From the UHGV virus genome UHGV-0060833: a stretch of 64,000 nucleotides of DNA; one strand, 5' to 3'. The number at the start of each line of letters is the position of its first letter. Position 1 is the first letter of the stretch. Under the pieces are notes generated by a model. That model worked only from the letters and a program-made list of their open reading frames with translations, was not told where the DNA came from and searched no databases. The stretch is from a virus. Made by a program: the position numbers and the translations under genes. Below, piece by piece: positions 8,375 to 9,071 of the stretch.

Positions 8375-8800
8375 ATGCTCGGCATTCTCAAAAAGAAATT
8401 CCGCAAAGCGGCTGGCGGAGTCAAGAAGATGGAAAACCGTGATGCGGTGGAAGCGACTGTCTGGGGCGCATATTCCATTGCATACTCTGACGGCACCTGC
8501 GATGCGAAAGAAATTGCAGTATTGGAAAAAACCATTGCAGCACTTCCTGCCTTTGCGCCGTTCTCCGGTGAAATTGCCCAGATGAGCGCCAATATTCGCG
8601 CTCAATATGAAGCCTCGCCGCGCCGAGCGAATGCCCAGGCTTTACGTGAACTGGCTGACGTGTCTGGAACTAATGATGCGGTAGATGTTCTGTGCCTATG
8701 CATTGATATTGCTGACCAGGATGGCATTGGGGCAGAAGATCAGGAGCAATTGAAGAAAATTGCCCAGGCTCTTCAATTGCCACTGGAACAGTATATCTGA
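8375..8800 (+). CDS. TerB-like domain protein (P1 tciA position)
   Basis: 141 aa with TerB-like pattern (AYSIAYSDGTCDAKEIAVLEKTIAAL ... LCLCIDIADQDGIGAEDQEQLKKIA). Confidence 0.6.
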   Translation: MLGILKKKFRKAAGGVKKMENRDAVEATVWGAYSIAYSDGTCDAKEIAVLEKTIAALPAFAPFSGEIAQMSANIRAQYEASPRRANAQALRELADVSGTNDAVDVLCLCIDIADQDGIGAEDQEQLKKIAQALQLPLEQYI

Positions 8801-8964
8801 TGGTTATAAAAGCACGTCTAATTCTGGCTTTGGTTTTTCTCGTGCTATCTGTGCTGGTGGATTTCACCAGCACAATCCTGTCGGTTTTATCCGACGGGGC
8901 GTTGGTAGCAGTAGCTGTAACATTGGTATGGCCGATATTTAAACCAGCCTCGAAGGATCAGTGA
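8800..8964 (+). CDS. Small hydrophobic membrane peptide (54 aa)
   Basis: ATG overlaps upstream stop (TGATG); MVIKARLILALVFLVLSVLVDFTSTILSVLSDGALVAVAVTLVWPIF...; below ORF-track size cutoff. Confidence 0.4.
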   Translation: MVIKARLILALVFLVLSVLVDFTSTILSVLSDGALVAVAVTLVWPIFKPASKDQ

Positions 8965-9071
8965 TGAGCTTCTGGGATTTTGCAGATAAGTATCCAATTG
9001 TTCTCATTATCATTGTTGCCATAGTTGTAGGCGGTATTGTTAGCGCCATTGAAGCACTTAGGAAACAGTAA
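8964..9071 (+). CDS. Small hydrophobic membrane peptide (35 aa)
   Basis: Again TGATG stop-start overlap; MSFWDFADKYPIVLIIIVAIVVGGIVSAIEALRKQ; ends 3 nt before the next tRNA. Confidence 0.35.
   Translation: MSFWDFADKYPIVLIIIVAIVVGGIVSAIEALRKQ

Follow-up and report, generated by a model that had tools for sequence, protein, structure and literature searches.

The tciA–tciB–tciC cassette of a P1-like phage-plasmid: a TerB-family gene translationally coupled to a DUF3927 membrane peptide

The tciA, tciB and tciC genes of bacteriophage P1 (GenBank AF234172, 70233–70929) have been part of the P1 annotation since the 2004 genome of Lobocka et al. Together they make up a region that is among the eight found to vary in P1-like plasmids, and about half of one subgroup has lost it. 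The literature assigns them a function only 'by homology' and describes no exclusion phenotype. Their transcripts have been measured in P1vir infection, and knock-down by CRISPR interference (CRISPRi) found each of the three genes to be non-essential for P1 plaque formation. Here, we analyzed the corresponding genes in the virus genome UHGV-0060833, a DNA stretch of 64,000 nucleotides (nt) referred to below as the window, in which the locus is laid out as follows:

8375–8800, plus strand: tciA, a TerB-family open reading frame (ORF) of 141 amino acids (aa) with an ATG start and a GAGG 7 nt 5' of the start
8800–8964, plus strand: tciB, encoding a 54-aa DUF3927 membrane peptide, the ATG of which overlaps the tciA TGA (TGATG, 8798–8802)
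8964–9071, plus strand: tciC, encoding a 35-aa single-span peptide, the ATG of which overlaps the tciB TGA (TGATG, 8962–8966)
9075–9150, plus strand: tRNA with anticodon CAU (trnI of P1, ileX-like), detected by ARAGORN and Rfam, 3 nt past the tciC stop
9437–10801, plus strand: ban, encoding a DnaB-type replicative helicase, an ORF annotated in P1 and SJ46 and the distal gene of the operon

An AAGGA is located 6 nt 5' of the tciC start, and the ORF listing extends tciC to 36 aa via an in-frame GTG at 8961. The three ORFs, both TGATG overlaps and the adjoining CAU tRNA were thus found as an initial annotation, made from the sequence alone, had described them. Its guess, by position, that this was the P1 tci region was also right: from 8200 to 9200, the DNA is 99.8% identical to that of Salmonella phage SJ46 and 97.5% identical to that of P1, and both records name the ORFs tciA, tciB and tciC, the tRNA trnI and the helicase ban. 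The order of the three genes and their TGATG overlaps are the same in P1, as are the flanks, with tRNA-Asn, tRNA-Thr, plp and upl upstream, trnI and ban downstream, and Oban, the C1 operator, heading the unit. On the basis of this identity and shared gene order, the window is a P1-like (SJ46-type) phage-plasmid and the feature is its tciA–tciB–tciC cassette. The region was found in 288 plasmid records, nearly all of them non-mobilizable Escherichia or Salmonella plasmids. In itself the finding adds little, since the tci genes stand in every P1 annotation and both DUF3927 and phrog_23152 are already recognized families.

Compared with the P1 alleles, TciA carries one substitution and TciB two, while TciC differs at 9 of 35 residues, nearly all of them within the hydrophobic span and mostly conservative. 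In P7, the equivalent arrangement is annotated as terB–upf69.4–upf69.6. Position and architecture in P7 and D6 are as in the window, TciC is homologous, and TciB is 83% and 61% identical, respectively; the first gene, by contrast, is another TerB allele in both, the P7 product being 30% identical to window TciA over its full length. The D6 record annotates tciA and tciB, and tciC is present but unannotated. A CAU tRNA, named tRNA-Ile2 in the P1 annotation, likewise follows tciC in P7, D6 and a further P1-like locus (L008).

Outside P1-like elements, the nearest described systems are those built around TerB. The TerB protein of the terZABCDEF operon (IncHI2 plasmid R478, KP-TerB) shares with TciA the PF05099 domain and acidic DG...E repeats and has a reported membrane association; its all-helical fold may be shared as well, judging by the TciA model. 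In contrast to that operon, no TerC, TerD, TerE or TerZ is encoded nearby in the window, and the partner of TciA is a 54-aa DUF3927 peptide rather than the multi-span TerC. The defence systems Shango (SngA), Bunzi (BnzA) and Dionysus (DinB) also combine a TerB domain with membrane components and have been proposed to act in membrane surveillance. The tci cassette differs from them in lacking a PADLOC match and a helicase/ATPase or pore-forming partner, and in being encoded by phages, including virulent ones. A further related arrangement is found in lambdoid prophages, where morons in the order Q–TerB–DUF3927–STnc100–holin contain the same overlapping two-gene unit with a TciA that is 72–87% identical. 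Their surroundings, as in P1, include tRNA genes and an STnc100-type RNA; unlike P1, these morons have no tciC and occupy a late Q-dependent region instead of a C1-controlled early operon.

That two-gene unit was found to be near-constant. TciB is a full-length DUF3927 protein (Pfam PF13064; 101.3 bits against a cut-off of 25, E = 2.7e-29, with residues 2–54 aligned to positions 1–53 of the 53-position profile) and also matches phrog_1470. Its genomic setting was followed in 184 loci from one-genome-per-species contigs, IMG/VR and phage records, each encoding a protein related to TciA or to the TerB allele of P7. In 181 of them, a DUF3927 ORF in the next frame starts within the stop codon of the TciA/TerB gene, through a TGATG, TAATG or GTGA junction, and the overlap survives switches between ATG and GTG starts. 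Of the other three loci, one stops at the end of its contig, one has been disrupted by a rearrangement, and one has a hydrophobic ORF that still overlaps but has diverged very far. An arrangement kept to this extent is far beyond chance. The 81 distinct TciB proteins show pairwise ratios of non-synonymous to synonymous substitution rates (dN/dS) of 0.25–0.42, that is, purifying selection, with D21, D32 and P45 invariant and F22, T23, G33 and W44 nearly so (DFT[SG]...DG...WP motifs). The initial annotation had proposed frame conservation in relatives as the check on both micro-ORFs. The tciB frame is kept in the 181 loci and that of tciC in 73 P1-like loci, and with their stop/start coupling conserved as well, both are real genes. 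Very short hydrophobic ORFs do arise easily, and the two could on that account have opened by chance in the DNA that separates tciA from the tRNA; this explanation is scarcely credible overall, and for tciB it is refuted by the full-length Pfam membership, the 81 variants and their dN/dS values.

In line with these results, tciB is a near-obligate, translationally coupled partner of tciA, whether the carrier is a P1-like plasmid, a lambdoid prophage or a virulent N4-like phage. In the virulent N4-like phages Pollock and FSL SP-058, the TerB–DUF3927 pair was found amid replication genes. Lambdoid prophages carry it between the gene for the Q antiterminator and those for the holins, other prophages have it near immunity regions, and in Klebsiella prophages it occurs with a 4-nt overlap. 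The pair is therefore a mobile cassette in lytically active transcription units, kept also by phages without lysogeny. Its retention by virulent phages points to a role in lytic infection, and the functional unit is the TerB–DUF3927 pair rather than a ter-like resistance operon.

A profile search retrieved 342 DUF3927 proteins. The best 120 of them were 49–90 aa long and contained no further Pfam domain, and all those with a named organism came from Enterobacterales or their phages. When the genome collection was scanned with TciB alone, 600 pattern hits were obtained, none of which was confirmed by tblastn; in the 7-sequence TciB alignment employed, no stretch was conserved enough for a motif search. 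Two apparent TciA–TciB fusion proteins (P0003 and P0122) were rejected, each being a single frameshifted assembly.

With regard to membrane topology, the two micro-proteins differ. The initial annotation had called both of them single-span peptides, which holds for TciC, where a slightly acidic N-terminus is followed by one clear span (approximately residues 11–31) and a basic C-terminus. For TciB, one span or two is unproven. Its hydrophobic run extends over about 41 residues (7–47) and is broken only by the invariant D21 and D32. AlphaFold predicted TciB alone as one continuous helix (residues 2–47; predicted local distance difference test (pLDDT) score 89), a model that cannot tell one span from two. 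The layout K4/R6...D21 | D32...K48 would equally fit a two-span hairpin with both ends in the cytoplasm.

The claim that the first gene encodes a TerB relative held, through both the Pfam threshold and the full-length likeness of its product to P7 TerB. The match of TciA to Pfam TerB (PF05099) is marginal, at 24.5 bits against a cut-off of 24.4, and covers residues 11–57, half of the domain. P7 TerB, in turn, scores 54 bits over the whole domain and occupies the equivalent slot ahead of nearly identical tciB–tciC genes. Most close TciA homologues also have a precomputed PF05099 match, and TciA matches phrog_632 with E = 1e-60. Neither TciA nor a TciA profile gave anything significant in sequence searches of the PDB, solved TerB structures included. 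At the level of structure, the AlphaFold model of TciA (pLDDT 86) is a six-helix bundle preceded by a basic, disordered N-terminus (residues 1–20; 1–14 in the model), an architecture that would suit the TerB fold class. The best PDB match of the model was 2h5n (probability 1.0, template modelling (TM) score 0.51–0.54, E = 0.03), which we take to have a TerB-like fold; KP-TerB was not among the top matches, and predicted structures of viral proteins matched better, with TM scores of up to 0.76.

Two features of TciA are relevant to its possible mode of action. Residues 1–14 (MLGILKKKFRK...) have a net charge of +7 and a moderate amphipathic moment of 0.5. Further, TciA contains two acidic D-G...E repeats, AYSDGTCDAKE (36–46) and ADQDGIGAEDQE (113–124), in which C42, E46, D114, D116 and G117 are invariant across 54 homologues and D39, G40 and D43 nearly so. 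Judged by their sequence, they match the TerB repeats that have been proposed to bind metal. Weak matches of TciA to centrin/EF-hand proteins (E ~0.1) were put down to the acidic D-x-D-G loops and discarded. Neither in the window nor in the related loci inspected was tciA flanked by terC, terD, terE or terZ; with no other ter genes nearby, TciA is a stand-alone TerB-family protein and not the member of a ter operon.

To place the cassette in its transcriptional context, the following elements upstream of tciA are needed:

6807–6823, plus strand, and 6818–6834, minus strand: the divalent C1 operator Oban (formerly Op72), with the ban promoters, located by operator matches
6994–7025, plus strand: terminator-like hairpin with a T-run, from a terminator scan, ending the dicF-like region annotated in P1
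7490–7643, plus strand: tRNA-Asn and tRNA-Thr of the ban transcription unit
8222–8341, plus strand: STnc100-like remnant in the tciA leader (RF02076, 41.9 bits against a gathering threshold of 47, E = 6e-8, model positions 31–147)

According to the P1 and P7 annotation, Oban controls a unit running from the dicF-like region through two tRNAs and the tci genes to trnI and ban. The ban leader of the window differs from that of P1 at 7 of 954 aligned positions, one of them inside the operator. As the cassette lies downstream of the C1-controlled ban operators, it is, by annotation, repressed in the lysogen. A sigma-70 scan of 6300–9500 returned no promoter and missed the annotated ban promoters too, and is thus uninformative on a promoter of tciA.

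TerB has been reported to be membrane-attached, amphitropic and in interaction with TerC, and TerB with TerC has been linked to resistance to tellurite, pore-forming colicins and phages. By analogy with that pair, the reading we favour, though only tentatively, is that TciA would be a peripheral protein of TerB fold, which TciB keeps at the inner membrane; it would be made in lytic growth and protect the cell membrane. Under this proposal, TciA and TciB would be made in a fixed proportion and form one membrane-associated unit, with TciB as its integral part in the inner membrane. TciA could dock on TciB and on the lipid surface via its basic, partly hydrophobic N-terminus, and its two DG...E repeats would bind a ligand or metal. 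Production of the unit in P1 would begin once C1 repression of the ban operon lifts, early in lytic growth. There it may condition or protect the inner membrane of the infected cell, in keeping with the resistances linked to TerB and TerC, rather than kill the host, and it would be dispensable in laboratory conditions. We infer this timing from the C1 operators upstream, the location of the pair in replication blocks of virulent phages and in the lambdoid slot between Q and the holins, and the P1vir transcripts; the physical interaction and the physiological role are likewise our inference.

Several findings weigh against this proposal. The pairing of TciA with TciB is one of genetic linkage and coupling only, and the role is extrapolated from a multigene ter operon of which no other gene is present here. 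The Pfam match of window TciA to TerB is as marginal as described above, with no solved TerB structure matching by sequence. Transcription starting at the C1-controlled ban promoters would meet a strong terminator-like hairpin (6994–7025) before it reached the tRNA, tci and ban genes. Finally, in 434-type prophages DUF3927 occurs without TerB, following a 247-aa multi-span membrane protein (precomputed PF27470), from which it appears that a DUF3927 peptide can partner a different upstream protein and that TciB is not, strictly speaking, an anchor for TerB.

The moron-like character of the cassette suggests a different explanation, namely that it acts in lysogenic conversion or exclusion, being expressed in the prophage from a promoter of its own and shielding the lysogen from colicins, tellurite-type stress or superinfecting phages. 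Its gene names and annotation derive from ter operon phenotypes, and TerB domains are found in the Shango, Bunzi and Dionysus defence systems. The cassette is, in addition, a variable region of P1-like plasmids, missing from about half of one subgroup, and the pair recurs in the lambdoid Q-to-holin moron slot and near immunity regions elsewhere. We nevertheless regard this explanation as doubtful. In P1, the genes lie inside the C1-repressed ban operon with no plus-strand promoter annotated before tciA, virulent N4-like phages retain the pair, and neither a PADLOC model nor another ter gene was matched.

The proximity of holin genes raises yet another possibility, in which TciB and/or TciC would be membrane toxins, host-shutoff or lysis-timing factors that act on the inner membrane or on cell division after induction, with TciA as their regulator. 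Both peptides are tiny and very hydrophobic, they share an operon with the dicF-like RNA, the lambdoid pair lies directly 5' of the holin genes, and a preprint lists tciA/B/C beside icd and kilA under 'cell division control genes', by annotation only. This was considered improbable. The tci proteins resembled no holin, antiholin or toxin family in Pfam, PHROG, NCBIfam or PADLOC, where the search of NCBIfam returned only two chance matches far below threshold and that of PADLOC no hit at E ≤ 1 for TciA, TciB or TciC, and Rfam detected no antisense RNA family over the genes. Moreover, tciB is under purifying selection and in fixed coupling to the gene of a soluble TerB protein, not to an antitoxin RNA or protein, and the genes are non-essential for plaques. 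The suggestion in the initial annotation of a small membrane toxin or exclusion module is therefore unsupported, given the lack of a defence or toxin family match, the C1-repressed operon, the virulent carriers and the CRISPRi results.

Carriage of the pair by temperate and virulent phages alike, in early or lytic units, would also suit a counter-defence role, in which the phage TerB unit mimics, titrates or masks the membrane signal read by host TerB surveillance systems or by the pore formers of abortive infection. Host systems with TerB domains are indeed proposed to survey the membrane. This idea is purely speculative, with neither similarity to a known anti-defence protein nor a host system known to be affected, and we regard it as very improbable.

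The STnc100-like remnant in the tciA leader bears on the origin of the cassette. In lambdoid prophages, full-length STnc100 (79–80 bits; L184 4211–4399, L011 3867–4070 and L080 3362–3570) lies directly 3' of TerB–DUF3927 and 5' of the holins, and a 2026 preprint connects prophage small RNAs with TerB genes. This element and the flanking tRNA genes suggest common ancestry of the tci region of P1 with the moron slot located between Q and the holins of lambdoid prophages.

The third gene of the cassette shows a different distribution. TciC matches phrog_23152 (E = 2e-26), and tciC was found only in P1-like elements, in which 73 loci encode 10 protein variants in three allele classes (P1, SJ46/window and D6), always with the TGATG overlap. 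Between the window and P1, tciC shows four synonymous and nine mostly conservative non-synonymous changes. The resulting dN/dS of 0.64, taken alone, would suit a chance frame, but with 13 substitutions the sites are too few for it to be weighed. Against a chance frame speaks the strongly diverged D6 allele, MDFWTYIDKNPGWSLLFLLVIVYGVEQVAKNLRRRK, located at 3278–3388 of NC_050154 (L007), where an unannotated tciC overlaps the preceding stop as TGATG and is followed by the CAU tRNA. This allele keeps the frame, the length, an N-terminal FW-x-x-x-DK-x-P, one hydrophobic span and the basic tail. The N-terminal motif is also kept at the protein level in contigs with guanine–cytosine (GC) contents from 27 to 70%, as detailed below.

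Searches with the 35-aa TciC were of limited reach: tblastn gave SJ46 as the sole match, at E = 0.1, and phmmer against 1.84 billion representative proteins returned two TciC clusters, one of which was further to that of P1 and sits in a contig of 64% GC without TciA or TciB. More relatives were traced by scanning IMG/VR and metagenomes with back-translated DNA motifs. At least 12 distinct peptides of 33–54 aa were recovered from phage-like contigs spanning the GC range given above, each starting with M-x-FWDF-x-DKH followed by one hydrophobic span, at the following positions and loci:

L190, 2815–2919 and 3023–3208: TciC-like peptides
L209, 3652–3759: TciC-like peptide
L194, 6177–6341, minus strand: TciC-like peptide
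L241, L248, L263, L267, L268, L271, L281 and L284: TciC-like peptides at other loci

These unrelated contigs encode no TciA or TciB nearby, and the peptides match phrog_23152, the family of P1 TciC, and no other. Their genes usually overlap the stop of the preceding gene and tend toward early or replication blocks: that of L241 adjoins a gene for single-stranded DNA-binding protein (SSB), that of L209 a RecT-like gene and that of P1 the DnaB-type ban; a conserved neighbour gene was looked for at these loci and none was found. From its sequence relationships, TciC would seem to represent a micro-protein family of its own, added by P1 to the TerB–DUF3927 pair. The TciC-like peptides look like an unrecognized family of phage membrane micro-proteins, which constitutes a modestly new lead together with the strict pairing of TerB and DUF3927. 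Conservation of the motif over very distant phages makes TciC a candidate small protein with a conserved host target; if this is true, a motif near-invariant across contigs of such different composition would imply contact with a universally conserved component of the host. Rather less probable than the membrane-protection proposal for TciA and TciB is a wider view of the cassette. In it, TerB–DUF3927 would be a self-contained two-protein membrane unit that Enterobacterales phages use in lytic growth and move as a cassette among early, replication and late regions; it would serve either to shield the infected cell's membrane or to blind the host defences that survey it. TciC would be the sole named member of a much wider micro-protein family.

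Some further observations were made on related loci and on the surroundings of the cassette. The 434-type DUF3927 loci (phage 434, L006 1612–2844; and L186–L189) lie downstream of Q, and DUF3927 is followed there by a DUF1737 gene and a holin in the E. coli prophage loci L186–L188 and by a 62-aa putative membrane protein in phage 434. Between tciA and the two tRNA genes, the minus strand of the window encodes plp (125 aa, putative lipoprotein) and upl (63 aa) at 7614–8183, both antisense to the transcript of the ban operon; plp overlaps the 3' end of tRNA-Thr. The tRNA-Asn of the window (7490–7565) has the anticodon ATT (G to A at position 34) together with a G-to-T change in the D-loop, while GTT is found in each of the 48 other P1-like loci with a copy of this tRNA, including P1, P7, D6 and SJ46. 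An A at position 34 would be unusual in a bacterial tRNA-Asn, and the change may be an isolate mutation or a sequencing error. Lastly, the 49 nt that follow the CAU tRNA (9152–9200) are 98% identical to an unannotated segment of many Stx2c-converting phages.

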